Shown here in pieces: positions 2,572 to 24,943 of a stretch of 26,245 nt of DNA. The stretch comes from a virus (taxonomy: Duplodnaviria; Heunggongvirae; Uroviricota; Caudoviricetes), in the IMG/VR virus record IMGVR_UViG_3300005399_000003. One strand, written 5' to 3'. Numbering within the stretch: the first letter of the stretch is position 1; the number at the start of each line of letters is the position of its first letter. Both the position numbers and the translations under genes were made by a program. The notes below the pieces were generated by a model. The model saw only the letters and a list, made by a program, of their open reading frames with translations, was not told where the DNA came from and did no database searches.

Positions 2572-2825
2572 TCCTTAAACCCTTTCTTCCCTACATTCTT
2601 GGCGCCGCGGTCGCAGTGATCGCGGGCCTCGGCGTCCAGAATACCCTCCTGAGACATGAGAATGACGACCTGAAATCGTCACTTCAGTTCGAGAAGACCA
2701 AAAGCCTCTCGTGCGATGCGCGTGTCTCCAGCATTATAAAGGACAAGCAAAGTGACGCGACTGTTACTGATCCCAGCGTTTTCAATCCTCCTGATGGCTG
2801 GTTCCTGCCCGAATCCCAACATTGA
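2568..2825 (+). CDS. Inner-membrane spanin (Rz-like)
   Basis: N-terminal TM helix (FLPYILGAAVAVIAGLGV) followed by a coiled-coil-like segment. ATGA overlap with the endolysin; the 3' end overlaps a lipoprotein ORF in another frame. Confidence 0.75.
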   Translation: MILKPFLPYILGAAVAVIAGLGVQNTLLRHENDDLKSSLQFEKTKSLSCDARVSSIIKDKQSDATVTDPSVFNPPDGWFLPESQH

Positions 2826-2985
2826 ACCTGCCTATCAAGGGCCGCTCTTCTGCGATGTCGAAGAAGCCCGGCGTTTCACCCGAGAAGAATGGGATATTCG
2901 CGCAACGCGCTGGCCCGAGAACCTCTCCAAAGACATCAAGACGAACCTGACCTGGGATCGCGAATGCTTGGAGCAGATCAAATGA
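2752..2985 (+). CDS. Outer-membrane spanin lipoprotein (Rz1-like)
   Basis: Signal peptide MTRLLLIPAFSILLMAGS-C with a lipobox-like Cys and a Pro-rich segment after it. Overlaps the i-spanin by 74 nt, the standard overlapped spanin arrangement. Confidence 0.7.
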   Translation: MTRLLLIPAFSILLMAGSCPNPNIEPAYQGPLFCDVEEARRFTREEWDIRATRWPENLSKDIKTNLTWDRECLEQIK

Positions 2986-4109
2986 CCGACAAGAATGAGC
3001 AGATCGTCCGTCTGAAAGACACCGAAGGGCTGAGCTGGGGCGAGATCGGCGAGCGCACGGGTCTTTCAGCTGAGGCTGCCCGCAGTCGATACCGCAACCA
3101 GCGCAAACGCATCGAGCTCCAGGAGAGCCCCGGCATTCTCGAAGCCGCCGAGAACCTCGGCATTCTCGACATGATCAAGCTCAAGGGCGGTTGGCTTAAA
3201 AGCAAGGACGCATCGCTGCGTTTCGACACGCCCAACGAGCCCGATGAAGATAATGCGCTGGATGAATACGTTGAGCGTCTAAAACGGGCGCTAGGGGCGC
3301 TTCCAGCTGCCCGCCCTAGTACCCACACCCCAGATGCCCCTGACAGCGTTCAAGCGCGCTATTTAGTCGCTGACCTGCACGGCGGGATGGCGGCGAACAT
3401 GGCGGTCTCCGGGGGTGAATATGATCTCGATCTAGCGGAGCATCGTCTGGTCGATGCAACGCAGCGCTTGGTGCAGCAGACAGCCCCGACCCAAACGGCG
3501 GTCATCGCCAATCTGGGCGACATGTTCCATGCCAACGACAGCAAGAAGAAGACCTTTCACTCAGGACATATCCTCGACATGGTGAAGCAGTCGTTCCCGC
3601 AGATCGCTCTGCGCGTGACGATTGCCATGATCCAGATGATCGAGACTGTTCTGAGCAAGCACGAGCATGTCATCTACCGCGGCGTGCCCGGCAACCACGA
3701 TGTCGATCAGTTCTTCTGGCTGACGATCGCCATTATGATGCACTACCGCGACAACCCGCGTGTCACCGTCGAGATGACAGAGGGTAAGCTCATCGTCGAC
3801 ACCTTCGGGCGCTGCATGAACGCCTATCATCATGGCGACAGCACCACCTTTCAGCGCCTCGTCAATCAGATTTCCGATCAATACGCCCCTGATTGGGGCA
3901 AGACCTATTGGCGCTATCTCGATACGGGCCATGTGCATCACGACACCGCTAAAGAGGTCGGCGGCATGCTCTGCGAGAGCCATCGCAACCTCGCACCGGT
4001 GGACGCGGCAGCCCACGGTTTTGGCTACTGGGGGCGGCAGGTTGCAAAGTCAGTCGTCATCCACAATGAGCGCGGTGAGATCGACCGCCACATCGCCTCT
4101 TTCGGCTAG
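2982..4109 (+). CDS. N-terminal HTH + calcineurin-like metallophosphoesterase
   Basis: The start is placed at ATG 2982 (ATGA overlap with the o-spanin stop), not 2889. HTH: GLSWGEIGERTGLSAEAARSRY. All five phosphoesterase motifs are present: ADLH, LGDMFH, GNHD, HHGD, GHVHH. Confidence 0.82.
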   Translation: MTDKNEQIVRLKDTEGLSWGEIGERTGLSAEAARSRYRNQRKRIELQESPGILEAAENLGILDMIKLKGGWLKSKDASLRFDTPNEPDEDNALDEYVERLKRALGALPAARPSTHTPDAPDSVQARYLVADLHGGMAANMAVSGGEYDLDLAEHRLVDATQRLVQQTAPTQTAVIANLGDMFHANDSKKKTFHSGHILDMVKQSFPQIALRVTIAMIQMIETVLSKHEHVIYRGVPGNHDVDQFFWLTIAIMMHYRDNPRVTVEMTEGKLIVDTFGRCMNAYHHGDSTTFQRLVNQISDQYAPDWGKTYWRYLDTGHVHHDTAKEVGGMLCESHRNLAPVDAAAHGFGYWGRQVAKSVVIHNERGEIDRHIASFG

Positions 4110-4577: not shown

Positions 4578-7500
4578 ATGGTAAAGTTCGTCAACCGAGC
4601 GATGATGACAACCCACACGACAGGGACCGGCAATGTCACGTTGCTGGCCGCTGTTGATGGCTATCATGACTTCGATTCAGCTGGCGTAGGGAACGGCGAT
4701 GTCGTTCCCTACACAATCGAGGATGGCGATCAGTTCGAGATCGGCCAGGGCGTCTACAACAACGCCACCAAAGTCCTCACTCGGATCGTTGAGCAAAGCT
4801 CAAACAACGACGCCAAGATCAATCTCAGCGGCGACGCGCGGGTCTATGTCACTCTGCGGGCTTCTGACGTTGACGATCTGCAAACTCAGATCGACGGCAA
4901 ATCAGCCTCCGGCCACGGTCATTCGATCAGCGATGTCTCGGGCTTGCAGGCTGCTTTGGATGGCAAAGCGACCTCCGCACAGGGCGCCAAAGCCGACAGT
5001 GCCGTGCAGCCCCAGGCAGGCCACGGTCTGTATCCCAATGCCGATAAGACGAAGCTTGCCGGCATTGCGACAAACGCCACCAAGAACGCCACAGACGCGC
5101 AGCTGCGGGATCGTAGCACCCATACCGGTTCGCAACCGATTTCCACTGTCTCAGGTCTGCAAAGCGCCCTGAACGACAAGCTTGATGCGAATGCGGCCGC
5201 CGTATCCGCCGACAAGCTCACAACACCGCGTTCAATCGCACTGAGCGGTGACGTGTCTGGCTCGACGTCTTTTGATGGCTCGGGCAATGTGACCATTACC
5301 GCGACCGTTGCAAACAACAGCCATACGCACACCATCGCCAACATCGGCGGGCTGCAAAACGCCCTCGATGGCAAAGCGACCGCGGCTCAGGGTGCCAAAG
5401 CTGACGCTGCCATTCCCGTATCGGAAAAGGGCGCTCTCAACGGCGTCGCAGAGCTGGATGGCACAGGCAAGGTGCCCGCATCCCAGCTGCCCTCCTATGT
5501 CGATGACGTGCTGGAATATGCCAACCGCGCAAGCTTCCCCGCCTCGGGCCGGGATGGCACGCTCTACATCGACGAAGCTGAAGGCGATGTCTATCGCTGG
5601 ACAGGCTCTGCCTATATCCAGATCAATGACGCCGTGTCTTCTGCCGATCAAGCGACCAAGCTTGCGACGGCGCGCACAATCTCCCTGTCCGGTGATGCAA
5701 CAGGTTCGGTGAGCTTTGACGGCTCCGCGAACAAGACCCTGAACGTCACCGTCAAGGACAACAGCCATAACCATACGATCGCCAATGTGGATGGTCTTCA
5801 GACGGCGCTGGATAGTAAGCTTGCAGCGAGCGCGAATGCGGTATCTGCGTCGAAGCTTTCCAGTGCTCGCACGATCTCCCTTGGGGGCGATCTCACTGGC
5901 TCCACATCTTTCGATGGTTCGGGCAATGTGACGATCAACGCATCGGTGAAAGATGACAGTCACAGTCACATCATTGGCAACATTGATGGTCTCCAAACAG
6001 CGCTGGACGGAAAAGAGGCGGAAAGAACGCCGGGCGAGCCTCATAGCAACTTGGGCACTCCAAGCGTGCGTGAGATGGCCCTGTTCGATGCACAGTTTAA
6101 CAACAAGATCGACTTCTACGACCCGAACCTGTTCTGGATCGAGACATCCAACGATGGCGTCAGCTGGACTGAGACAGCGGACAGTGAAACGCACAAGCGC
6201 CGCTTGGTTGGCGGTGACGGTAGCGCGAGCATTGTAATTCCGCACGGCACTCCGTTCTATCGTATTCGCATGAAGGCTAAGGACTACGTTTACCTGAATG
6301 CAGTCTATTTCTACTGGTCCGGCAGTGGGAATACCACAAAGGTCAAGATCCAAAAGAAACACAAGAACTCGGCCGCATGGCAGGCGCACACCAATTCAGA
6401 GAAGGCGGTAGGCTCCTGGCCTGGACATCTTTACCTGTCGCACCCGACAATCCCGTGGCACCCGAACTCTGATACGACCCATCTTCAAGAGGTGGCAGTC
6501 GTGTTTGAGCCTAACTGGGGCTCGCAGGGAAATGCTATTTCACTGTACCGCATGCAGTGGTGGGGCGGGTATCCTGCCGGGCGTCGTAATGTCTATTCGA
6601 CGGATGAACATGCCAACGTCAGCTTTCCGGCTGACATTTCCGCTGCGAACTTGAATGTGAGCAATTGGGACACGGCCTATAGCTGGGGCGACCATGCTAC
6701 TGAGGGATACCTCAAGTCTGTTTCCTGGGGGCAAATTGCAGGCAAACCCGGCACGTTTAGTCCGTCTGCTCATAGTCACCCGCTGAGCGAGATCGACAAT
6801 CTCTCCATTCAGGCAGAATCTGTTCAGATCGACACCAGCCATGGGTATATTCAGCTGGGTCCAAAGAACGGCTCTTACTGCCATGTATATACCGACCGCC
6901 CGAGCTTCTATTTCAATAAGGAATTGCAGGTTCTTGGTAAGCAGGTTTTCCATACCGGCTATCATCCCAATGCTGACAAGCTGACCACAGCCCGCACCAT
7001 TTCCCTGTCAGGCGATGCCAGCGGCTCTGTCAGCTTTGACGGCTCGGGCAACGTCACTTTGCCAGTGACTATCGCGAACAACAGTCACTCCCACACCATT
7101 GCAAACATCAGCGGGCTGCAAACTGCCCTTGATGACAAGCTGGCGGCGAGTGCCAACGCGGTATCCGCATCGAAGCTTTCCAGCGCCCGCACCATCAGTC
7201 TTTCTGGCGATGCCTCTGGGTCCGTATCCTTCGACGGATCTTCGAACGTCTCGATCAATGTCAATGTCGCTGATGACAGTCACAACCACACGATTGCAAA
7301 CATCGACGGCTTACAGGACGAGCTGAACTCAATCGACTACCCGTGGCTGTCGCAAAATCCCTACAGCTATGATGGGTCCACGCATTACTGGTACTTGAAG
7401 ATCGCCAAAGCCGACGCGGGCAGACATGGCCTTATTGAGTATTATGTCAGCGATGATGTGAACTACCCAAACAGCTCTCACGGCTATATTCGCTTTTCCC

Positions 7501-8234
7501 ACTGGAACAATAGTACCGTATCCGTGCGTCACACGCAGGTTTGGGGTGACACACAACAGGGCATTGAGGTTTTTGTAGACAACAGCGACAATCTCTGGGT
7601 TCGCTGTCCGGGGATCGACTGGGGCGGGGCGGTGTTTAACTACCGCCTCCTTCGCGGCAATATCACAATGGAGAATACCCGGCAGCAGGCCGCGCCCGCT
7701 GCTGTTTGGGAAATCCCAGAAGTGGGTCGGGGGTATCGTTTCAACCGCGGTGATGTGACGGCCGGACCGGTCAACACCTATGACTTCAACACCCATCTTG
7801 GGAGAACCATTAAGGCAGGTCCAAACACCGTCTTTCACGATGGCTACCACCCCAATGCGGACAGGCTGACAACAGCCCGTACCATCTCCCTGTCTGGTGA
7901 TCTGACTGGCTCTGCAACCTTCGACGGCTCTAGCAACGTCACCATCTCTGCATCGGTCAAGGATGACAGCCACAATCACACGATCGCCAACGTCGATGGT
8001 TTGCAGACCGCCCTGAATGGCAAGGCAAGCTCAAGCCAGGGCTCCAAAGCAGACACGGCCTACGGCTGGGGCAATCACGCCTCTGCTGGCTACCTCACAA
8101 CTGTCCCCTTTGCCTCGCAGGCAGAGGTCGATGCAGGAACAATCAACAACAAGGCCGTCGCCCCAGACACGCTCAAGCAGCGTCTGTCAAAGGTTGGCAG
8201 CTCATACGCCCGTCAAATGGCATTTGGAGGCTAA
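4578..8234 (+). CDS. Long fibre/adhesin protein with repeat shafts and internal globular domains
   Basis: N-terminal anchoring-type domain (MVKFVNRAMMTT…GTGNVTL…EIGQGVY), phage-tail-repeat motifs (HxHxIxxxxGLQxALxxK), six ARTISLSGD…GSxSFDGSxN units, a KGALNGVAELDGTGKVPASQLP domain, and a FASQAEVDAG…KAVAP motif near the C-terminus. Confidence 0.88.
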   Translation: MVKFVNRAMMTTHTTGTGNVTLLAAVDGYHDFDSAGVGNGDVVPYTIEDGDQFEIGQGVYNNATKVLTRIVEQSSNNDAKINLSGDARVYVTLRASDVDDLQTQIDGKSASGHGHSISDVSGLQAALDGKATSAQGAKADSAVQPQAGHGLYPNADKTKLAGIATNATKNATDAQLRDRSTHTGSQPISTVSGLQSALNDKLDANAAAVSADKLTTPRSIALSGDVSGSTSFDGSGNVTITATVANNSHTHTIANIGGLQNALDGKATAAQGAKADAAIPVSEKGALNGVAELDGTGKVPASQLPSYVDDVLEYANRASFPASGRDGTLYIDEAEGDVYRWTGSAYIQINDAVSSADQATKLATARTISLSGDATGSVSFDGSANKTLNVTVKDNSHNHTIANVDGLQTALDSKLAASANAVSASKLSSARTISLGGDLTGSTSFDGSGNVTINASVKDDSHSHIIGNIDGLQTALDGKEAERTPGEPHSNLGTPSVREMALFDAQFNNKIDFYDPNLFWIETSNDGVSWTETADSETHKRRLVGGDGSASIVIPHGTPFYRIRMKAKDYVYLNAVYFYWSGSGNTTKVKIQKKHKNSAAWQAHTNSEKAVGSWPGHLYLSHPTIPWHPNSDTTHLQEVAVVFEPNWGSQGNAISLYRMQWWGGYPAGRRNVYSTDEHANVSFPADISAANLNVSNWDTAYSWGDHATEGYLKSVSWGQIAGKPGTFSPSAHSHPLSEIDNLSIQAESVQIDTSHGYIQLGPKNGSYCHVYTDRPSFYFNKELQVLGKQVFHTGYHPNADKLTTARTISLSGDASGSVSFDGSGNVTLPVTIANNSHSHTIANISGLQTALDDKLAASANAVSASKLSSARTISLSGDASGSVSFDGSSNVSINVNVADDSHNHTIANIDGLQDELNSIDYPWLSQNPYSYDGSTHYWYLKIAKADAGRHGLIEYYVSDDVNYPNSSHGYIRFSHWNNSTVSVRHTQVWGDTQQGIEVFVDNSDNLWVRCPGIDWGGAVFNYRLLRGNITMENTRQQAAPAAVWEIPEVGRGYRFNRGDVTAGPVNTYDFNTHLGRTIKAGPNTVFHDGYHPNADRLTTARTISLSGDLTGSATFDGSSNVTISASVKDDSHNHTIANVDGLQTALNGKASSSQGSKADTAYGWGNHASAGYLTTVPFASQAEVDAGTINNKAVAPDTLKQRLSKVGSSYARQMAFGG
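5211..8024 (+). repeat. Six dispersed copies of a ~65-aa coding repeat, arranged 1+2+2+1
   Basis: Units begin near 5211, 5658, 5853, 6978, 7173 and 7860. The tandem pairs are spaced exactly 195 nt apart (5658/5853 and 6978/7173). Confidence 0.9.
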
Positions 8235-14455: not shown

Positions 14456-15194
14456 GCACCTGGTCAAGCACTACGGGGAGTTCCAAGGGTCCGCTTTGGA
14501 CTTCCTGTCGCTTGAAGTTTACGTTTCAAGATACTGGACGAGAGAGCAAATTAAGATCGGCATCGAGCGCACGCAGCAGACGTGGTTCGACTATCGCATG
14601 ATCCATCCCGCGATGCGGGTTCTGCATTTTGCACATGAATATGCCCGCGCACGGGAGCGGGCTTTCCATCATCACTACGGGCGCTCAAAGGCCCAAAGCC
14701 CCGTGAATCCTTATAGCAAGCGCAGTTTGAGAAGCGGCTCCACTGCGTTGCTGATCAACACCATGCACATCGTTGATCAGATGAAGATGCCTTACCCGCT
14801 GTTCTTCGATGCGGTGATCGAGGCGCTTTTGCAAAAGCACGGCTATACGAAAGATTGGGACAGCACGGGCTGGGCCGCTGCCGCTGACGGGGTTCCGCTC
14901 TTGGGGCATATGCGCCACGGGCAGTCTGTCATTGCCGCTCAGCGGGCCTTTGAAGAGCGCTGCCGCACCCGTATGCCGCTGCCCAAGCATCCCAGCTACC
15001 GTATGAAGAACTGGGCCGGCACTCCTGCGCAAAAGGACTGCGTTGCGTGGTTCTGCTCAGAAGCAAAGCACCGGCGCGAGACAGAGCGCCCCTATGTTCT
15101 CAAGCGCATGATCGAGGATGACTTCCTCAATGAACGCGAAGTGCTCAGACGCTTCGGGGCCGATATGGTCAAGACAATTCGGGCTATCGTTTAG
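14412..15194 (+). CDS. Conserved phage hypothetical protein upstream of the helicase (start uncertain: 14370 or 14412)
   Basis: A long ORF filling the gap between phoH and the helicase. The motif TWFDYRMIHP recalls the gene preceding dnaB in SSU5/pHCM2-like elements (from memory, unverified). Confidence 0.7.
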   Translation: MICRSSSLEIDTRVEHLVKHYGEFQGSALDFLSLEVYVSRYWTREQIKIGIERTQQTWFDYRMIHPAMRVLHFAHEYARARERAFHHHYGRSKAQSPVNPYSKRSLRSGSTALLINTMHIVDQMKMPYPLFFDAVIEALLQKHGYTKDWDSTGWAAAADGVPLLGHMRHGQSVIAAQRAFEERCRTRMPLPKHPSYRMKNWAGTPAQKDCVAWFCSEAKHRRETERPYVLKRMIEDDFLNEREVLRRFGADMVKTIRAIV

Positions 15195-15230: not shown

Positions 15231-17963
15231 ATGACAGAAGAAACAGTGGAAGAGTTCGAAGCAGAGGCGACATTCGACTTCGACGAAGCATTCCAGCTCA
15301 AGGTGGCGGCTCTCTGCACGCGGGACGTAATGTTCAATGTGCGCACGAGTGGCCTGATCGAGCCAGGCTATTTCGAGAACGCAGCACATGGCACGATCGT
15401 GGGTCTGGTGAGCAATCACTATGACACCTACAAGACCGTGCCCTCGACAGTGGTGCTTGCGAAGCTGATCAAAGATGCGGTCGCATCGAAGATCATTCGC
15501 GAAGATATGCTGCCGGATGTCAAAACGGAGCTGGGCAAGATCCTCCGGGCTGATCTTAGCGATCGGGACTATGTGGTTGATCAAGTCGCAACCTTCGCCC
15601 GACATCAGGCGATCTACAACGCGATGATCAAGTCCAGCAGCTATCTGGAGAAGAATGACTTCGACCAGATTGAAGCTCAGATGGGCAAGGCGATCATGGT
15701 GGGCGCCAATGACGCAAGCGAAGCCCACGACCTTTTTCTCGACATTGAAGCCCGGGCGGAGATGCGTAAAGAGATTGCGGCGGGCACACGCAAGCGGGCC
15801 GTGACATCAGGCTATCGAGAGTTTGACGATGCCACAGCTGACGGCGGCTTCACCCGCGGCGAACTGTCAGTCCTCATGGGCCCGGCGAAAATGGGCAAAT
15901 GCGTAACAGGCGACACGCTGATCATCACCGAAGACGGGATGGTGCGTATCGACGACTATCTGCCCCCTGACATGCCAACAGGCGCAATGGATGCGATCGA
16001 CATCGGCATTCTGGGAAAAGACGGCGCTGAACGTGCAAGCCACATCTACAACAGCGGTGTGCGAAAGACCCGCCGGATCAGAACCCGTCGCGGCTATGAG
16101 ATTGAAGGCAGTCTCAATCACCCCATGATGGTTATGACCAAAAACGGTCTCGATTGGGTCAATCTCGAAGATGTTCGCAAAGGCGATGCGATGGCTGTCC
16201 AGCGCGGGGAATTGCGTTTTGGACATCACGTTGATCTGATCCCGGCGCGCAATGCCACGTTCGATTGGATCGAATTCAGCCCAAGGCGGGGAACGCACAA
16301 TCTGATCAAACTTCCCGTTGCGATGACGCCCGATTTAGCGGAGCTTCTGGGCATGATTGTTGCCGAGGGGCATGTTGCCATAAAGGACGCACTTGTCACC
16401 TTTACGCAGAAGGACGAAAGCATTCTGCGGCGATACTGCGAACTCATGCACCGACACTTTGGGCTTGAGCCGACGGTCAGCAAGGGGGATCGGGCCTTTG
16501 AGGCGCGTGTCTATAACCGCATGCTGCAAGTCTTCCTCGACAAGCTCGGACTGCCCGCGACACTCTCTGCCCAGAAGGAAATCCCAAAGAGCATCAGGCG
16601 CGCTCCCTATGGCGTTGTGAAGCGCTTTCTGGAGACTGTCATGGGTCTGGAAGGGTCTGTCGTCACAGCCCCGTCAGGCAAGCTCTCATATCATCTGACG
16701 ATGGCATCGAAGGAGCTGATGCGACAGGTGCATCTGCAACTGCTCAACTTCGGCATTGTCTGCAAGATGCGGCTCAAGCCCGGGTGTGCAACAAACGGCA
16801 CAGGTATCATGCGGGAATACTGGCACATCGAAGTGGCAGGGCAACACAATCTGCAACTGCTTGCGGAGATTGGGCTCTATGAGCCGCGCAAGACGAAAGC
16901 TCTGAAGGAAGGGCTGACGGGTATTGACGCAACAGCACAAGACCGCATCCCCAATGCCGCTGCAAAAGTCACCAAGATCATGCAGGAGATGATGGCGGCC
17001 GGCATTAAGCTGAAACGTGATGTGCCACCGACGCTCTGCAAACAGCTCTATGCCGTGAAATCTGGAAGACGGCACCTGAGCTATGTCATCGCCGATCAGC
17101 TGTCTGAGTTCATCGGGGATAGGGTGATGGGCGAGGGAGTCACATGGCTGCGCGATACATTGCGACAGGGCTATGCCTATGACGAGATCGTGGAGATTGT
17201 CGAGGGCGAGGCGCAGACGATGGATATCTCTGTACCTGAGACCAACAGCTTTTGGGCAAATGGCCTGATCAGTCACAACTCCTTCGGGCTATTGAATTTC
17301 GCGGTGAATGCGATCAAGGCGCGTTTCAACGTGCTGTTTATCTCGCTCGAAAACAGCGTCGAGGTGACGACCAATCGGGCAGAGGCGTATCTGTCAGGCA
17401 TCCCAACCCGCGATCTGAATGATCACATCGACGAAGTGGCACAGAAGGTGCGCGCGGCTCTTGAGGGGCGCGGGACAATGAAGGTGCATCGCTTTGCGAC
17501 CAACTCATTCTCCCCGCGTGACCTCAAGCGATTGATCGAGCGCTACCGCGCGCAGGGCATGCTCTTCGATATGGTCGTGATCGACTATTGGGACATTATG
17601 AAGCCGCCCATCCGCTACAAGGATGACAAGATCTCCGAAAGCCGCGAGATCGGCGTCGAGCTGCGTCAGATCGCGATGGAAGAGGACATCGCAATGCTCA
17701 CAGCGGTGCAGACGAACCGCGAGGGGTACAAGGCCAAGACTGCGAAAGCTGATCACGTCGCCGAAGACTTCAACAAGGTGCGTCTCGCTGACTTCCTGTT
17801 CTCAATCAACGCGACAGATCAAGAAAAGGCCGACAAGGTTGCACGGCTCTATTTCGCTGCCGTGCGTAACGCAGAGGGCGGCTACGAGCGCACGGTGCAT
17901 CAAGACTTGGCGCGCGCCACCTTCATCAAGAAGTTTGAGCCAAAGGGGTCTTACGGTGAGTGA
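15231..17963 (+). CDS. dnaB: DnaB-like (SF4) replicative helicase precursor containing an intein
   Basis: Walker A GPAKMGK/S is split by an intein. Also FISLENS, VVIDYWD and TAVQTNREG motifs. The spliced product would be 450 aa (910 minus 460). Confidence 0.92.
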   Translation: MTEETVEEFEAEATFDFDEAFQLKVAALCTRDVMFNVRTSGLIEPGYFENAAHGTIVGLVSNHYDTYKTVPSTVVLAKLIKDAVASKIIREDMLPDVKTELGKILRADLSDRDYVVDQVATFARHQAIYNAMIKSSSYLEKNDFDQIEAQMGKAIMVGANDASEAHDLFLDIEARAEMRKEIAAGTRKRAVTSGYREFDDATADGGFTRGELSVLMGPAKMGKCVTGDTLIITEDGMVRIDDYLPPDMPTGAMDAIDIGILGKDGAERASHIYNSGVRKTRRIRTRRGYEIEGSLNHPMMVMTKNGLDWVNLEDVRKGDAMAVQRGELRFGHHVDLIPARNATFDWIEFSPRRGTHNLIKLPVAMTPDLAELLGMIVAEGHVAIKDALVTFTQKDESILRRYCELMHRHFGLEPTVSKGDRAFEARVYNRMLQVFLDKLGLPATLSAQKEIPKSIRRAPYGVVKRFLETVMGLEGSVVTAPSGKLSYHLTMASKELMRQVHLQLLNFGIVCKMRLKPGCATNGTGIMREYWHIEVAGQHNLQLLAEIGLYEPRKTKALKEGLTGIDATAQDRIPNAAAKVTKIMQEMMAAGIKLKRDVPPTLCKQLYAVKSGRRHLSYVIADQLSEFIGDRVMGEGVTWLRDTLRQGYAYDEIVEIVEGEAQTMDISVPETNSFWANGLISHNSFGLLNFAVNAIKARFNVLFISLENSVEVTTNRAEAYLSGIPTRDLNDHIDEVAQKVRAALEGRGTMKVHRFATNSFSPRDLKRLIERYRAQGMLFDMVVIDYWDIMKPPIRYKDDKISESREIGVELRQIAMEEDIAMLTAVQTNREGYKAKTAKADHVAEDFNKVRLADFLFSINATDQEKADKVARLYFAAVRNAEGGYERTVHQDLARATFIKKFEPKGSYGE
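15900..17279 (+). mobile_element. Intein with LAGLIDADG homing endonuclease (460 aa)
   Basis: N-terminal Cys (CVTGDTLI), block B (GSLNHPM), endonuclease motifs LLGMIVAEG and FLETVMGLEG, block H (SKELMRQVHLQLLNFGI), and C-terminal FWANGLISHN followed by Ser as the +1 residue. Confidence 0.95.
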
Positions 17964-19038
17964 GATTGACGATCTTCTGGAGAGCATTCTGCTTGAGGAT
18001 GTGCTTGAGCGTGAGGGCATGGACTACGGCACAGGCTCGGGCAGTCGTGGCGAGCAGCTGAACATCAAGGAGTGCCCTTTCTGTGGCGGGGACGACTGGA
18101 AAGTCTATGCCAACCGCGACAGCGGCTTGGGCAACTGCTTTCACGGCTCATGCCAAGAGACGTTCAATCTCTACAAGTTCACGCGACAGGTGGTCGAGAA
18201 TAGCGGCGGCGGCAGTGCCGTCGCTTATCTCAACAAGCTCGCGATGGAGATGGGTTGGCGGCCGGCAGCGCGTGAGCGGGTCGATGTCGAGACCTATGAT
18301 GCAACAGATTGGGAGCTTCCGGGCGGCACGATCAAGCTGCCCGACCGCAAGGGCAACATGCTACCCTATCTCACAGAGCGCGGCGTCGATGCAGAGACAG
18401 CGGAATGGTTCGATCTGCGCTACTGCCATGATGGGTGGTACAAATACACCAAAGTCGGCGGCGAGGAGGGCTTCATGCCTTTCAAGAAGCGCGTGATCTT
18501 CCCCATTCACGACCTTGACGGCACGATGGTGAACTTTCAGGGCCGCGACATCACGGGCAAGGCAGACAGCAAATACATCTTCCCACCCAGGCTGCCCGGG
18601 ACAGGGCGTTTCCTCTACAACGGACATCGCTTTGGGCGAAAGAAGCGGGCGCTGCTCTGCGAGGGCGTCATGGACGTGATCGGGGCGCATAAGGCGCTGG
18701 AGTCGCACAAAGAGATCGGCATCTTAGGCAGCTTCGGCATGCATCTGTCGTCGGGTGATGATGGCAATGATCAGATGTCGCGCTTTCTGGAGCTGAAGGC
18801 GAGGGGTCTCGAAGAAGTGACGATCATGTGGGATGGCGAGAGGAAAGCCTACAAGGCAGCTGTGAAAGCCGCACGCACCCTCTGCGGCATAGGGATCAAG
18901 GGAAAGGTCGCGATGCTGCCTGCGGGCAAAGACCCCGGCGAAGCGCGGGCTGCCGAGATTATCAGCGCCTATGAGAAGGCGGTCTCAGCGAGCGGTAGCG
19001 GGGGCTTGGCGCTGACTTTGAAATGCCCGTATAAGTAA
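17956..19038 (+). CDS. DNA primase (Zn finger + TOPRIM)
   Basis: The start is placed at GTG 17956, overlapping the helicase stop. Zn finger CPFCGG…CFHGSC, RVIFPIHDLDG…FQGR, and TOPRIM motifs LCEGVMD and MWDGE…DPG. Confidence 0.9.
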   Translation: MSEIDDLLESILLEDVLEREGMDYGTGSGSRGEQLNIKECPFCGGDDWKVYANRDSGLGNCFHGSCQETFNLYKFTRQVVENSGGGSAVAYLNKLAMEMGWRPAARERVDVETYDATDWELPGGTIKLPDRKGNMLPYLTERGVDAETAEWFDLRYCHDGWYKYTKVGGEEGFMPFKKRVIFPIHDLDGTMVNFQGRDITGKADSKYIFPPRLPGTGRFLYNGHRFGRKKRALLCEGVMDVIGAHKALESHKEIGILGSFGMHLSSGDDGNDQMSRFLELKARGLEEVTIMWDGERKAYKAAVKAARTLCGIGIKGKVAMLPAGKDPGEARAAEIISAYEKAVSASGSGGLALTLKCPYK

Positions 19039-19064
19039 GTCACTATTGATCTACCTGCTATCGT
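19036..19064 (+). promoter_or_regulatory. Operator plus extended -10-like element
   Basis: TAAGTCA-CTAT-TGATCTA (19036-19053; left arm perfect, right arm two mismatches), followed by TGCTATCGT (19056-19064). Confidence 0.5.
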
Positions 19065-19099
19065 GTTCTACGAATGATTCGAGAGACGAGGGGAAGACG

Positions 19100-19693
19100 A
19101 TGATGGAAATGCTGCCGCCGAGAGCTGAGGGGCTGGTCAAGAGCATGCTTGAGAGTGCCAAGAGGCAGATCGAGCGTAATCTCACCGATATGTACGGTAC
19201 AGTCCCGCCCATCACGGACAGTCACACGGTAAGAGCGACGCTCACGAACGACACGGCGGGAATGAGAAAGAGACTGAACCTCTCGGCTGAGGTTCACTTC
19301 CGGATCGAACAGCATCGCACTGAAATGGAGCCTCTCGCGCTCGCTGATTCCGACCGTCTTCGTCCTGTATCCCCTGTAATAAAGACAGAAACGCTCTCGT
19401 CCTACACCTGTGACTTCGCATTGGAAGTCTGGCTCGATGACATGGAGATCGCGTCAAGCGAAGGCATGGCATGGAATAAGGTGATGGAGAGCATGGAGGT
19501 TAAACTTCATCAGATCGAAGGCGAAATCGTACCCACTGCCAGTGATGATTTGAGAAGCGAGAAAACAGCCCACCACAAACTCGGTAGGACACAAGAGACT
19601 GTTGCCCCACCAAGACCCAAAGCGCATTCTAAACCCACAGCAAAGAAGAGCGCCCCTAAAGTGACCCACGACGAGGGTTTCGGCGCGTGGTGA
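19100..19693 (+). CDS. Phage hypothetical protein
   Basis: The start is placed at ATG 19100 behind GAGGGGAAG. 197 aa with a Lys/Pro-rich tail ending in GFGAW. Confidence 0.7.
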   Translation: MMEMLPPRAEGLVKSMLESAKRQIERNLTDMYGTVPPITDSHTVRATLTNDTAGMRKRLNLSAEVHFRIEQHRTEMEPLALADSDRLRPVSPVIKTETLSSYTCDFALEVWLDDMEIASSEGMAWNKVMESMEVKLHQIEGEIVPTASDDLRSEKTAHHKLGRTQETVAPPRPKAHSKPTAKKSAPKVTHDEGFGAW

Positions 19694-19697
19694 GGGA

Positions 19698-19715
19698 GAA
19701 GTCAGCAGTGACGAA
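19698..19715 (+). promoter_or_regulatory. Palindromic operator overlapping a GTG start codon
   Basis: GAAGTCA-GCAG-TGACGAA covers the GTG at 19708-19710. Confidence 0.6.
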
Positions 19716-20892: not shown

Positions 20893-22275
20893 ATGACTGA
20901 CCGAATTTCGGACATCATCGACGAGCTGAATGCCAATAACGGCACCAACTACAAGATGGACGTGCTCAAGAAGCACAAGGACAACACGTTGCTCCAGCGC
21001 GTGTTGAAGATGACCTACGACAAGGCGACATTCACATACGGCGTCTCCCTGCGCTCGATCGGCAATGTCGAAGAGGCCAAGGGCGTGATGACGCTCGAAG
21101 AGGCGCTCGACATCCTCGAATGGGAGCTTTCGACCCGTGAAGTGACGGGCAACTCTGCCATTGAGCGCCTGCAAGGCGTCGCCGAAGCCCTCGACCTTTG
21201 GGATCAGGGCGTCTTCTTGAAGGTCATCAACCGCGATCTGCGCATCAACATGGGCCGCAGCAACATCAACAAGGTGTTCAAGGGCCTGATCGTGAAGCCG
21301 ATCTACATGCGCTGCGGCGTCTACAACGAGAAGACGGCGAAGAAGTTCAACCCCGAAGGCGCCTTCGTGCAGCTGAAGGCAGATGGCACCTATCGTGAGT
21401 TCCTGGTCGAGAACGGCAAGGTTAACTGCGTCTCCCGGCAGGGTGAAGAATACATCTATCCTGAGATCGAAGAGGCGCTGCGCGAAACAGGCGTCGATGC
21501 CGCCTTCTTTGGCGAGCTGACCGTCTATCGCGACGGCAAGCTGCTCGATCGTGCCACGGGCAACGGCATTCTGCGCAAGAATGAAATCCCCGATGACTGC
21601 AAGGTCGTCTTCGATTGCTGGGACGTGGTCTCGCTCAAGGAATACAACAACGCCATCAACAAGGTGAAGGGTACAACGCCCTATGTAAACCGTTGGACGG
21701 TGGTACAGAAGCTGTTCCCCGACCACACGCATGACCCCTGCGCATCTGGCGCGACCCCTGTGCGTGCCATCGAGTGCATTGAGGTCAACGACATGAGCGA
21801 GGCCCTCAAGTTCACCGCAGAGGTGATGAACCGCGGGCTTGAAGGCACGATCATCAAAGAGCGCAATGCGATCTTCCGCGATGGCACGAACCCGAGCCAG
21901 CTCAAGCTCAAGCTGGAGATTGACGTGGATGTGCGCATCACGGGCTTTCACGAAGGCACGCCAGGCACAGTGCGTGAGAAGACCTTCGGCGCCATGACTT
22001 TCGAGACAGATGACGGGCAGATCAAGGGCCGCACATCGGGCTTCAACAACGCGCAGCTGGAAGACTTCAACAGCCGCCGCGAGGAGCTGATCGGACAGAT
22101 CATGACAGTGACCTGCAACGACATCACCAAGGGCCGTGACAACGACTATTACGCGCTCAGTCACCCGCGCTTTGTGGAGATCCGCACAGACAAGTCGGAG
22201 ACAGACACACTGGAGCGCGCACTCGACACCAAAGCGATGGCGATGATGGTCGATAAGCAAGCAGAGGCTGCGTAA
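20893..22275 (+). CDS. ATP-dependent DNA ligase (T4-like)
   Basis: Motif I QLKADG (adenylated Lys), III FFGEL, IIIa FDCW, IV EGTIIK, V KLK, and a C-terminal OB-fold ending in HPRFVEIRTDK. Confidence 0.95.
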   Translation: MTDRISDIIDELNANNGTNYKMDVLKKHKDNTLLQRVLKMTYDKATFTYGVSLRSIGNVEEAKGVMTLEEALDILEWELSTREVTGNSAIERLQGVAEALDLWDQGVFLKVINRDLRINMGRSNINKVFKGLIVKPIYMRCGVYNEKTAKKFNPEGAFVQLKADGTYREFLVENGKVNCVSRQGEEYIYPEIEEALRETGVDAAFFGELTVYRDGKLLDRATGNGILRKNEIPDDCKVVFDCWDVVSLKEYNNAINKVKGTTPYVNRWTVVQKLFPDHTHDPCASGATPVRAIECIEVNDMSEALKFTAEVMNRGLEGTIIKERNAIFRDGTNPSQLKLKLEIDVDVRITGFHEGTPGTVREKTFGAMTFETDDGQIKGRTSGFNNAQLEDFNSRREELIGQIMTVTCNDITKGRDNDYYALSHPRFVEIRTDKSETDTLERALDTKAMAMMVDKQAEAA

Positions 22276-22280
22276 GCGCC

Positions 22281-22289
22281 TGCTATAAT
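22281..22289 (+). promoter_or_regulatory. Extended -10 promoter TGCTATAAT
   Basis: Perfect TGn-TATAAT 5 nt after the ligase stop. The predicted TSS near 22296 coincides with the start of hairpin 1. No operator palindrome is present here. Confidence 0.7.
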
Positions 22290-22295
22290 AAGCAT

Positions 22296-22375
22296 ACTCG
22301 GGCAGCCCTTTCTCTCGTTCTCCTGCCCGAGACCAGCGCGCCCGATCCTTCCCCTCACCCCAATCGGGCGCGCGC
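22296..22375 (+). ncRNA. Candidate twin-hairpin structured RNA (5' leader or sRNA) with pyrimidine-rich loops
   Basis: A 9-bp stem (22297-22305/22323-22331) with loop CCCTTTCTCTCGTTCTC, and an 11-bp stem (22336-22346/22363-22373) with loop CCTTCCCCTCACCCCA. No U-tract follows. Confidence 0.55.
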
Positions 22376-22397
22376 CTTAACTCCCAAAGAGAAAGCC

Positions 22398-22607
22398 ATG
22401 TCAGATCAAGACACCTTCAAATCCGTCTCTGTAGCAGCCCTTCGCTACATGCACGCCATGATCGCCAAAAACGCGCTTGAGGACGATGATCTGCTCCCCG
22501 TCTTCGCTGAGATGGACGCGCAACTTGCGGAATACGAGGCCACCCGGCCCAAGGACAGCGCCATCGAGCGCGCCCGGGCCAAGCTGCGCATGAAGAGGTC
22601 AGCATGA
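22398..22607 (+). CDS. Small helical hypothetical protein (69 aa)
   Basis: First ORF after the structured leader. ATGA-coupled to the next gene. Confidence 0.7.
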   Translation: MSDQDTFKSVSVAALRYMHAMIAKNALEDDDLLPVFAEMDAQLAEYEATRPKDSAIERARAKLRMKRSA

Positions 22608-22786
22608 GCGCGCGGGACCATGAGTGCCCGCGCTGCCATGACGACGCATACAGCCCCGGTGAGGGGTGCTGCTACAACTGCGGCTATGAGCTCCACGGAT
22701 GGCTCAAAGACCTAATCCCCGCCTTGTTGCTGGTTCTGCTGGGCGGGTTTGCATTCAGCATTGCAATCAACTGGACATTCAAATGA
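22604..22786 (+). CDS. Small Zn-ribbon + transmembrane protein (60 aa)
   Basis: CPRC…CCYNC followed by the hydrophobic segment LIPALLLVLLGGFAFSIAINW. ATGA overlaps on both sides. Confidence 0.7.
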   Translation: MSARDHECPRCHDDAYSPGEGCCYNCGYELHGWLKDLIPALLLVLLGGFAFSIAINWTFK

Positions 22787-23154
22787 CCCCGAAACAATCA
22801 CTGATCATCGAGGCCCTGCGCTTCGCAAACTGGGCGGCAGGGCAGGGGATCGTCCCTGACGACGACCAAGATGTCACCGCGCCCGAAGACTTCCTGATGC
22901 AGTACAGCAAGGAGACAGGCGACGAAGATTGGGAGACCTTTGCCGAGCGCATTGGCGGAAACCTACATATCGCCGGCATTGAGAGCATGACGCTTGAGGA
23001 GCTGGAGCAAGAGCGAGAGGCTTGGCTGAAGGTCTGCCGAATGCCTGTTGGGCCAGATGGCCCCGGCAACGACGCGCGTCGCGCCGCAGGCAACTCCTTC
23101 GATCTGCTCGATGCGTTTGTCTACCGCCGCAAGATGGAAGCGGGGTTGATATGA
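22783..23154 (+). CDS. Acidic hypothetical protein (123 aa)
   Basis: The start is placed at ATG 22783 (ATGA overlap), not 22699. The stop overlaps the next start. Confidence 0.7.
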   Translation: MTPKQSLIIEALRFANWAAGQGIVPDDDQDVTAPEDFLMQYSKETGDEDWETFAERIGGNLHIAGIESMTLEELEQEREAWLKVCRMPVGPDGPGNDARRAAGNSFDLLDAFVYRRKMEAGLI

Positions 23155-23402
23155 GCGATGGCAAGTTCAGCTGCCCCGACTGCGGCAGCGAAAACGCAGT
23201 CTCGAAGGCGACGGCATGGGATGCCCGCGCGGAAATCCCGCCCCAGGTCAAAGACAACCTTGAGCGTCTGGTGCACATCGAGGTGGTGGCCCGCATACTG
23301 ATTGACGACAGTCCGAAGACGCCCGATGAAGAGACGGTAACCGTCACAGTGCGCAAAGACCTTCTCGAAAAGCTGGCAGCAGCCATGGGAATGACGCTAT
23401 AA
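23151..23402 (+). CDS. Hypothetical protein with a single CxxC (83 aa)
   Basis: The start is placed at ATG 23151 behind GCGGGG (ATGA overlap). Begins SCPDCGS…ATAWDAR. Ends overlapping the integrase stop. Confidence 0.62.
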   Translation: MSDGKFSCPDCGSENAVSKATAWDARAEIPPQVKDNLERLVHIEVVARILIDDSPKTPDEETVTVTVRKDLLEKLAAAMGMTL

Positions 23403-24683
23403 AGCCACCCGCTCCAGCTGAGCCCTTCGGAAAGCCAAATCCCCACCCGAGCCATAACGCTCCCTGCCCAAGGCGTGACCTAGAAAGTCACGCCTTAGTC
23501 GTTCGTCGATACTGGCTTCGAGCATGCGGTCTTCGAAGCTATGGCGCAGACAGTAGAGCGAATGCTTCTCCGTCTCCATCAGATCATTCTCCCGCAGATA
23601 CTTGTTGATCGTCGCGCTTACGGTAGACGAGCGATCAAAGTACCGCGGGAAGCCCTGTGGGAACGCCCTCAGAGCGTCTAAGGACACGCCCGTGAGGGGT
23701 ATGACCCTTTCAGCGCTGGATGTCTTCACAGCCCGCTTAAATTCACCCTCTGAGCGCGCCTTAATCTCGATGAAGGGGACTTTCCCGCCCAAGTGAATGT
23801 CTTCCGCAATCAACGCACCCGCTTCGCTGGGTCGAACCCCTGTGTTGATCATCAGATGCACGACAGCCCGCGCTTCGGAGTTCAGGCCCGACAGGTGATT
23901 GCCCTTGATCAAGGTGCGCTTGATCCACTCCGTAGAGAAGGGCTTGCGCACGCCATCTTTCGCGCCTTTGAAGGCCCAGCCTGAAAGCGGCAGATCAAGA
24001 TCGAGGCGTTTCATCTGATTGACCCTGCGCAGCACGGTCCCGAGGTTCTTCATCTCCTTGTTCGCGGTGCCCGGAAGAATGTGCCCCTCCTGAATGCGCT
24101 GACCGTAGAACTCCCGCAGCTCCAGCATGTGATCTGCCGACATGTGTTGAAGCTCGATGTCGCCAGCGACCTCAATGAAGCCTTTGAAAGCGCGCTTGAA
24201 GTTGTTGTGGCGCACCCTGAGCTGATTGCGGGATCGGTTGTTATCCTCTTCTCGGGTGAGTTCAAAGAAGATCTCCAGGGCCTCGCTCATGCGAATGCCG
24301 GGCTTCTTGATGGCGCCGAGAAACGCCCGCGTGCGCCTTGGGTCCATCTCGCCTTCAGTGTTCAAGGTTTTGGTGAACCGCTCGTAGATGTCCTTCAGCG
24401 GAAGCTGAGCAACCTCATCAGCGTGAAGAAACTGCATCCCAGCCGCGGCCGCCAGCTCCTGCGCTGCCTCATAGCGCACCTTGGCAACATCCGTCTCTCC
24501 ACGCACCATCGCCTCCCACATGCCGATCTGCTGTTGCCAGACCTGGGCGGCTTTGATGTTGGCGACTTCGAGACTGTCCGTCTTGAGACTGATCTTGATT
24601 TCCCGACGCTCCTCGACCTCGGCATACCGCTTGGGCACCCGGCGACGGAGCATATAGGTTTTGTTGCGCATGAAGATTGGCAT
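23397..24683 (-). CDS. Tyrosine recombinase/integrase with an N-terminal DUF6538-like domain
   Basis: N-terminus RNKTYMLRRRVPKRY…EIKISLKTDS. Catalytic set: R (TGVRPSE), K (VKTSSAER), YCLRH, LGH and Y (ERYG). RBS GAGGGA. Adjacent to the tRNA 3' end. Confidence 0.93.
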   Translation of the reverse strand: MPIFMRNKTYMLRRRVPKRYAEVEERREIKISLKTDSLEVANIKAAQVWQQQIGMWEAMVRGETDVAKVRYEAAQELAAAAGMQFLHADEVAQLPLKDIYERFTKTLNTEGEMDPRRTRAFLGAIKKPGIRMSEALEIFFELTREEDNNRSRNQLRVRHNNFKRAFKGFIEVAGDIELQHMSADHMLELREFYGQRIQEGHILPGTANKEMKNLGTVLRRVNQMKRLDLDLPLSGWAFKGAKDGVRKPFSTEWIKRTLIKGNHLSGLNSEARAVVHLMINTGVRPSEAGALIAEDIHLGGKVPFIEIKARSEGEFKRAVKTSSAERVIPLTGVSLDALRAFPQGFPRYFDRSSTVSATINKYLRENDLMETEKHSLYCLRHSFEDRMLEASIDERLRRDFLGHALGRERYGSGGDLAFRRAQLERVAL

Positions 24684-24745
24684 TGATTCCCTCTCGATGG
24701 CAATTTGCCAGAGAAAGAACTGCCGGGGAACCCACGAGAAGATCG

Positions 24746-24868: not shown

Positions 24869-24943
24869 TGGCAGCCCGTAGGGGAATCGAACCCCTCTTT
24901 CCAGGTTGAAAACCTGGCGTCCTAACCGATAGACGAACGGGCC
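24869..24943 (-). tRNA. tRNA-Glu (anticodon TTC), intact with encoded CCA; integration target
   Basis: Reverse complement GGCCCGTTCGTCTATCGGTTAGGACGCCAGGTTTTCAACCTGGAAAGAGGGGTTCGATTCCCCTACGGGCTGCCA. Anticodon stem CCAGG/CCTGG with loop TTTTCAA; T-loop GTTCGATTC. Confidence 0.98.

Follow-up and report, generated by a model that had tools for sequence, protein, structure and literature searches.

A candidate anti-Shine-Dalgarno riboregulator: a conserved twin-hairpin RNA behind an extended -10 promoter in SSU5-like temperate phages and phage-plasmids

The stretch of DNA analysed in this work is 26,245 nt long, is referred to below as the window, and represents the right-hand end of a temperate phage in its integrated state. 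Genes for lysis, tail-fibre and PhoH proteins come first; a DnaB helicase gene with an intein, followed by primase and three genes of unknown function, lies 5' of the ATP-dependent DNA ligase gene (20893-22275). The ligase gene ends directly before a gap of 122 nt, which separates it from four small genes of unknown function (22398-23402, plus strand) and holds a promoter and twin hairpins, the subject of this report. The four genes form an operon composed of orf69 (22398-22607), its first gene, orf60 (22604-22786; product Cys-rich and hydrophobic at its tail), orf123 (22783-23154) and orf83 (23151-23402), all on the plus strand and convergent with the gene of a tyrosine integrase (23397-24683, minus strand). 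A tRNA gene (24872-24943, minus strand) is the attachment site of the phage, and a host recJ-like gene is listed after it. Calls for the small-gene operon agree with the gene calls of two identical contigs, L070 and L074. No Pfam or PHROG function was found for the four small proteins; the predicted model of the orf69 product consists of three helices (pLDDT 73) and had no fold match at E ≤ 0.001.

Comparison with related contigs provided several details of this region. The window and L070/L074 have orf123 and orf83, which L020 and L061 lack; by its gene content the small-gene operon is a variable cargo region. The intein of the DnaB-like helicase (window 15231-17963) contains a LAGLIDADG endonuclease domain, and in L061 the ligase block is preceded by an inserted HNH endonuclease gene. 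Three contigs, the 94.7-kb L070 and the contigs L061 and L069, represent the free phage, with attP joined. In them the integrase gene precedes an HTH (repressor-like) gene on the opposite strand and a cobT-like gene, and next come genes of an AAA+ protein (CobS/MoxR-like), a phage sigma-70-family factor and DNA polymerase III alpha. The phage thus has a sigma factor of its own, with possible consequences for promoter use.

An extended -10 box (TGnTATAAT), TGCTATAAT, occupies positions 22281-22289 of the plus strand and is accompanied by neither a recognisable -35 nor an operator dyad. When both strands of the window were scanned, TGNTATAAT was found once, against 0.09 occurrences expected. Transcription is predicted to start at about 22296, and hairpin 1 begins seven bases after the box. 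This hairpin (22297-22331, plus strand) has a perfect 9-bp stem (22297-22305/22323-22331) closed by loop 1A (22306-22322), 17 nt long and pyrimidine throughout but for one G. Hairpin 2 (22336-22373, plus strand) has a perfect 11-bp stem (22336-22346/22363-22373) and a C/U-rich loop of 16 nt, loop 2a (22347-22362). An unstructured leader (22374-22397) follows on the same strand and carries the ribosome-binding site (RBS) of orf69, AGAGAAAG, at 22388-22395. Every coordinate that a preliminary description of this DNA had given for promoter, stems, loops and complementarities agreed with the sequence, as did its account of a perfect extended -10 in front of two perfect GC-rich stems (9 and 11 bp) that lack a U-tract. 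The loops, described there as dominated by pyrimidines, contain 30 pyrimidines among 33 bases (fractions of 0.94 for loop 1 and 0.88 for loop 2). The folding check it had called for gave a minimum free energy of -39.3 kcal/mol and z = -4.5, and none of 200 shuffled sequences folded as well. A strict scan of the window's plus strand for tandem perfect hairpins returned two pairs, the twin hairpins and a shorter pair at 14719-14780 with loop pyrimidine fractions of 0.47 and 0.58, which leaves the element at 22297-22373 as the only tandem pair with pyrimidine-rich loops on that strand. Neither hairpin is followed by a U-tract, the loops are 16-17 nt long and the terminator scan gave no call, so that the element does not qualify as an intrinsic terminator.

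Relatives were gathered with the ligase, the orf69 protein, RepA and CobT as anchors. Clade A comprises the window, at least 14 metagenome contigs of identical sequence (L070 and L074-L078 among them) and the close variants L020, L060, L061, L063 and L064; L001 and L062 constitute clade B, L002 (a contig also listed as L016, L021 and L044) clade C, and L003 clade D. The module of promoter and twin hairpins occurs at the equivalent position in four further lineages of the SSU5-like phage/phage-plasmid clade, which supports a real and conserved structured RNA, proximal to its promoter and with anti-Shine-Dalgarno-like loops. An equivalent -10 box lies 7-10 nt 5' of hairpin 1 in L020, L060, L061, L063, L064, L001, L062, L002 and L003, and a short AGAACA-like stretch is found between the extended -10-like box and the structured RNA in all clades. 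Folds of the RNAs of four relatives had z values from -3.9 to -5.4. Stem pairs were read from per-lineage folds, because MAFFT, applied to the hairpins, put the 3' arms of L001 and L002 in the wrong place. In L001 and L062 the outer bases of the stems are kept and inner pairs are exchanged, while the stems of L002 (12-15 bp and 14 bp) are unrelated in sequence, paired nonetheless, and stand at an equal distance from the -10 box; the structure is conserved with compensating changes. In L003 the RNA folds as a three-way junction, a closing stem around two internal hairpins, and downstream of it are a long hairpin, a U-rich tract and then the 3' end of an opposite-strand repA. With this U-tract hairpin and no real ORF behind it, the L003 element would be a free-standing sRNA gene. 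A loop core, CUGUCU(C), is common to L001, L002 and L003 within otherwise unrelated stems.

What surrounds the module varies. Genes that follow the RNA are unrelated in L001 and L002, and there are none in L003; the upstream gene also changes from lineage to lineage, while promoter and hairpins stay together as a unit. At the place taken by the integrase gene in the window, L002 and L003 carry repA with iterons, and L002 parA as well, which identifies these two as plasmid-type relatives. In L019, whose ligase is 74% identical, a plain U-tract terminator stands in place of the RNA. The element was not found in more distant relatives gathered by ligase (L023-L043) or by RepA (L045-L059), a search of INPHARED phages returned distant ligases only, and two scans of genome contigs with the ligase gave no match. 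Scanning for the pattern in its stop-codon and promoter context yielded the locus already known from the L001 contig and, besides, three AT-rich matches ascribed to chance. A covariance model, R1, built from three training sequences, proved too sequence-bound: in 277 kb of relatives it recovered its training sequences only, missed L002 and found nothing new. The gathering-threshold Rfam search of the whole window returned the tRNA only, and the permissive search of Rfam 15 gave nothing relevant at E ≤ 10 for the window region and L003, at E ≤ 5 for L001, L002 and L020, or for L019. We are confident that the element is a real, conserved and uncatalogued phage RNA.

The pattern of substitutions among close relatives separates a fixed scaffold from changing loops. 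All 40 stem nucleotides are invariant across six clade-A contigs, and the substitutions of this clade are confined to the loops, the 4-nt spacer and the 5' leader. The 24-nt leader with the orf69 Shine-Dalgarno sequence (SD) is identical throughout the clade except for a 1-nt insertion in L064. Loop 1 exists as two alleles, A and B, which differ at 6 of 17 positions, all by transitions, on an invariant stem; loop 2 has three variants (2a, 2b and 2c), again on an invariant stem, and the alleles of the two loops assort independently. Flanking coding DNA of the window and L061 differs by approximately 8%, and set against this divergence the rate of loop evolution is no lower than that of neutral sites, whereas the scaffold stays fixed. 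Among close relatives the loops are thus the fastest-changing part of the RNA, the opposite of a typical conserved sRNA seed. Co-evolving specificity and relaxed constraint fit this fast evolution equally well.

Complementarity of the loops to phage RBSs pointed above all to the gene directly after primase, g19100 (19100-19693, plus strand), whose RBS region (19080-19096, plus strand) is the best candidate for a target acted upon in trans. Its CGAGAGA (19080-19086) complements loop 1A, and one base later GAGGGGAAG (19088-19096), ending 3 nt before ATG 19100, is the exact complement of CTTCCCCTC in loop 2a. The duplex of this RBS with loop 2a has an energy of -18.7 kcal/mol (p 0.007) and that with loop 1A -20.2 kcal/mol (p 0.08); the site is also the best non-self match of loop 1A in the whole window. 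Just upstream lies an imperfect operator-type dyad, AAGTCA-N4-TGAtCT (19036-19053, plus strand), and dyads of this type are likewise placed before the post-primase gene in L002 and L003. The dyad marks g19100 as repressor-controlled, whereas the promoter of the RNA lacks one, in agreement with the earlier suggestion that it is operator-free. The second candidate target is the RBS (19689-19707, plus strand) of the next gene after g19100, a 209-aa reading frame starting at GTG 19708, a start set by comparing the N-terminus with that of the L001 homologue. There GGTGAGGG complements the 3' half of loop 2a (-21.4 kcal/mol, p 0.013).

In the relatives, the post-primase RBS was a test position set beforehand, and cognate loop-RBS p values were obtained against composition-preserving shuffles of the loops. 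Loop 1 of L002 is unrelated in sequence to the loops of the window, yet the L002 post-primase gene (ATG 2815; 2815-3228) carries GCGAGACAGA, a perfect 10-nt complement of this loop ending 1 nt before the ATG (-19.0 kcal/mol, 0 of 400 shuffles), although by duplex energy alone the site is not the top one in its locus. At the homologous gene of L003 (2486-2920) the cognate match is weaker (-11.4 kcal/mol, p 0.015). The match of loop 2 to the post-primase RBS, reported initially for the window as an exact complement, has been the most informative of the leads, with cognate complementarity at this position in three lineages and in different sequences: it changes together with the loop. Exchanged between lineages, the window's loops were not significant on the L002 RBS, and on that of L003 only loop 2a was nominally so (p 0.03); the L002 loops were not significant on the window site. 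Nominal cross-matches were seen for the L001 and L003 loops that share CUGUCU on the L002 site (p 0.007-0.02) and for L001 loop 1 on the window site (p 0.01). Combining the L002 and L003 cognate values by hand with Fisher's method, leaving out the hypothesis-generating window and allowing for two loops per RNA, gave P about 0.002. All 14 contigs carrying g19100 are identical, which confines the test of covariation to comparison between clades, with three to four independent lineages. The clade-B phage L001 lacks this gene; a perfect 9-mer instead joins its loop 2 to the RBS of an 89-aa ORF located just upstream of the RNA (-19.6 kcal/mol, 0 of 400 shuffles). No Pfam or PHROG family matched this ORF, for which we note a putative helix-turn-helix motif. 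L019, which has the same 89-aa gene without the RNA, shows no loop match at its RBS.

The usual SD of the phage is GGAGA-like, the complement of UCUCC-type loop cores. Short matches were weighed against a chance background, as the preliminary description had advised. Complements of at least 8 nt occur at 4 of 29 curated RBS windows (g19100, the 19708 gene, orf69 and an AAA+ gene on the left arm), where 0.67 would be expected with shuffled loops (P = 0.0056). This part of the check favours the matches; the other is less clear, since with a crude gene list and the window alone a 9-mer at some RBS was reached by about 17% of composition-preserving loop shuffles, and complementarity there exceeds only modestly what C/U-rich loops would yield with purine-rich RBSs. 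A statistic summed over five lineages, with a cruder gene list, gave P about 0.0005. These comparisons support action in trans on phage RBSs, as far as complementarity can suggest it.

Two observations accompany the candidate targets. The three post-primase proteins are otherwise dissimilar, with a WGR domain in L002 and L003 and no family for the window protein, but all end in aromatic-Gly-x-Trp (FGAW, as in the g19100 product, or WGSW), and this C-terminal tag is thereby linked to a gene slot apparently under control of the RNA. In L002 the 9-mer GCGAGACAG, which complements loop 1 of that phage, has three plus-strand copies (2804, 6477 and 7702; about 0.06 expected), one at the post-primase RBS and two inside repA and parA, where they are antisense to the gene; a further copy with one mismatch, at 8126-8134 (minus strand), is in sense orientation immediately 5' of the parA SD. 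The extra copies may be more targets or may reflect P4-like action on read-through transcripts.

Two further sites were examined as targets and rejected. The preliminary description had also paired loop 1 with the SD region of the integrase mRNA; the energy of this duplex, -11.8 kcal/mol, was reached by 39% of shuffled loops, and the integrase leader is identical in L061 despite a different loop 1, so the integrase gene belongs to the context of the RNA and is unsupported as its target. The strongest single match of all was found in L061, where the RBS of the cobT-like gene (5413-5423) contains an 11-nt complement of loop 1B (0 of 300 shuffles). Compared among L061, L069, L070, L071 and L072, the RBS of this first left-arm gene differs between sister phages exactly at the 11-mer site, and only two other bases of the intergenic region differ between L061 and L069. 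The cobT RBS of the window phage has no match to its own loops, and as the strong match is restricted to L061, this RBS was dismissed as a conserved target; some strong matches are accordingly lineage-specific or due to chance. Separately, the fold of the integrase leader itself (window 24684-24725, minus strand; z -3.2) joins the SD GAGAGGGA to a C/U tract upstream of it that has CUUUCUCU in common with loop 1A; L061 has this leader unchanged. This leader hairpin is likely to sequester the SD and to control integrase translation.

Comparison with known RNAs placed the element near several families and inside none of them. Cuckoo-type sRNAs are Hfq-bound and stress-induced and keep a conserved chromosomal neighbourhood. 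The family comprises RSs0680a-d/CcsR1-4 of Rhodobacter and SmelC397/alpha-r14 of Sinorhizobium, and is defined by 2 to 4 adjacent hairpins of similar size, each with CCUCCUCCC in the loop (PMC4615179). Like these, the RNAs of the window, L020, L001 and L002 have two adjacent hairpins of similar size, stems vary with many compensatory changes, and the setting is alphaproteobacterial. However, CCUCCUCCC is missing from the loops of the window and of its relatives, the nearest stretch being CCUUCCCCUC, and the Rfam search gave no match; membership in the cuckoo/alpha-r14 family, to which the preliminary description had likened the RNA, is not upheld. Loops of the phage RNA are of UCUC/CCCUC type, or of CUGUCUC type in relatives, and the two loops are unlike each other, in contrast to cuckoo. 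The phage RNA also comes immediately after its own promoter and forms the 5' leader of an operon, whereas cuckoo RNAs are co-transcribed behind a DUF1127 gene; it resides in a prophage, and its candidate targets are phage genes.

The biological setting has closer parallels among phage RNAs. C4-type RNAs control an antirepressor or a replication operon and are matured by processing. They include the c4 antisense RNA of the phage-plasmids P1/P7 and the related P4 CI RNA, both covered by the Rfam family C4 (PMC8546580, PMC4825925). Here, too, a small RNA belongs to a temperate phage or phage-plasmid, stands at the head of a small-gene operon, has two loops proposed to pair at the ribosome-binding region and concerns genes that are also under a dispersed-operator repressor; the loop variants between near-identical phages recall P1/P7 heteroimmunity. 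On the other hand, there was no match to the C4 covariance model and the fold differs in four of five lineages, the C4-like closing stem with two internal hairpins being present in L003 only. The best-supported candidate target lies 3.2 kb upstream in another operon, whereas that of c4 is directly downstream on the same transcript, and no antirepressor gene was recognised here. In the Gifsy-1 prophage of Salmonella, the RNA IsrK, whose Rho-independent terminator allows some read-through, switches on an antirepressor gene located downstream (PMC4825925). It resembles our RNA, as read here, in being a translation-acting prophage RNA that occurs in two forms, an sRNA and the 5' portion of a longer mRNA that contains small ORFs, and differs in that a terminator is found here only in L003 and that the reading we favour is repression in trans. 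Among Firmicutes, LhrC1-5 and RsaE/RoxS expose several C/U-rich loops, each able to pair with the SDs of several mRNAs. The exposed C/U-rich loops of the phage RNA are potential SD-pairing sites of the same kind, but sequence and host are unrelated, and the Firmicutes RNAs are chromosomal, stress-regulated and equipped with terminators. In architecture, then, the RNA resembles cuckoo and in setting P1 c4, P4 CI and IsrK, while it lacks the defining features of both cuckoo and C4; we regard it as a known kind of RNA and a new family, absent from Rfam.

The explanation that we prefer, and to which we would give about an even chance, is that the RNA is an antisense (anti-Shine-Dalgarno) riboregulator of phage mRNAs. 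Transcription would begin at about 22296 from the operator-free extended -10 promoter, and the first ~78 nt would fold into two stable hairpins displaying long pyrimidine-rich loops; in the window phage the RNA would double as the 5' leader of the four-gene operon beside the integrase gene. The loops would pair with purine-rich RBSs of a few phage mRNAs and block initiation of translation, the clearest candidate target being the repressor-controlled gene directly after primase. Such pairing would place a second, post-transcriptional lock on genes already silenced by the prophage repressor. Of this scheme, RNA synthesis, loop-RBS pairing and repression by pairing are the steps that we infer.

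A purely structural role is the alternative that we take most seriously while still considering it unlikely: the hairpins would protect a 5' leader against 5'-end-dependent decay, or bind S1, Hfq or a phage factor, with no pairing of the loops. It is consistent with hairpins that begin at the predicted +1, with loops that drift quickly (all six A/B differences being transitions) above fixed stems and a fixed downstream leader, and with the statistical weakness of complementarity when the window alone is considered. It accounts poorly for the RNA of L003, which is kept without a downstream gene, for perfect loop matches of 9 to 11 nt that coincide with RBSs in L002, L001 and L061 and greatly exceed those of shuffled loops, and for the CUGUCU(C) core kept within unrelated stems. 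Should the loops pair with host instead of phage messages, the RNA would be a cuckoo-like anti-SD RNA by which the lysogen reprograms host translation, a form of lysogenic conversion. The two-hairpin architecture with C/U loops, similar to that of Rhodobacterales cuckoo RNAs, speaks for this, loop diversity could track host targets, and the operator-free promoter is plausibly active in the prophage; given that the loops lack CCUCCUCCC and that the covarying matches found are phage RBSs, we hold it to be distinctly improbable.

The same complementarity could act in cis, with loop 1 pairing to the orf69 SD and gating the small-gene operon, as the preliminary description had offered as one of two options. 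The 8-nt complement between CTTTCTCT (22308-22315) and AGAGAAAG, 2 nt before ATG 22398, is indeed exact, and the duplex with loop 1A reaches -9.7 kcal/mol (p 0.03). This holds for allele A only: the phages with allele B (L020, L060 and L061) have lost the match with the SD unchanged, and their duplex of -4.8 kcal/mol is reached by 57% of shuffles. L062 has an L001-type RNA directly before an orf69 homologue and no loop-SD complement, and the genes downstream are unrelated in L001 and L002 and absent in L003. As a conserved function the cis switch was rejected, and we consider it very unlikely as the explanation of the element. Scarcely any weight, slightly less again, goes to the view that the element is no RNA regulator. 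It would then close the replication-gene operon as a terminator or insulator lacking a U-tract, or act at DNA level, for example as a protein-binding cruciform or a single-strand initiation site. Its place immediately behind the ligase stop codon, where the replication module meets the lysogeny/maintenance module, would suit this, and in two lineages the minus strand folds about equally well. Yet the extended -10 box is conserved at fixed spacing between stop codon and hairpin 1 in every lineage, the plus strand is more stable by 4-8 kcal/mol in L002 and L003, and promoter and hairpins stay together while the upstream gene differs. Moreover, relatives have canonical U-tract terminators (L019), from which it follows that the U-less twin hairpins are not ordinary ones.

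Returning to the anti-SD riboregulator, a more specific and speculative extension, which we think rather unlikely, is that the RNA determines specificity in the manner of an immunity factor, as c4 does in P1/P7, its fast-diversifying loops co-evolving with the RBSs of a few repressor-controlled genes. If this were true, co-circulating strains would differ in which incoming or resident genomes are silenced after transcription, and in SSU5-like phages and phage-plasmids both lysogenic repression and superinfection immunity would gain a second, RNA-based layer. To our knowledge, very few model systems of temperate-phage riboregulators exist (P1/P7 c4, P4 CI, lambda oop, P22 sar and IsrK). The element described here would add one for a globally distributed marine phage/phage-plasmid group so far without genetics. 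It offers candidate RNA-target pairs with natural compensatory variants across lineages, and would support the idea that anti-SD-loop RNAs are a common phage device for control of translation.

Structures of a comparable kind were also noticed in more distant phage-plasmids of the RepA type. In L054 (2331-2413), L056 and L057, tandem hairpins lie about 90 nt upstream of repA and bear CCCCTCCC-type loops; they may represent another anti-SD-loop RNA or a structure of the iteron region.
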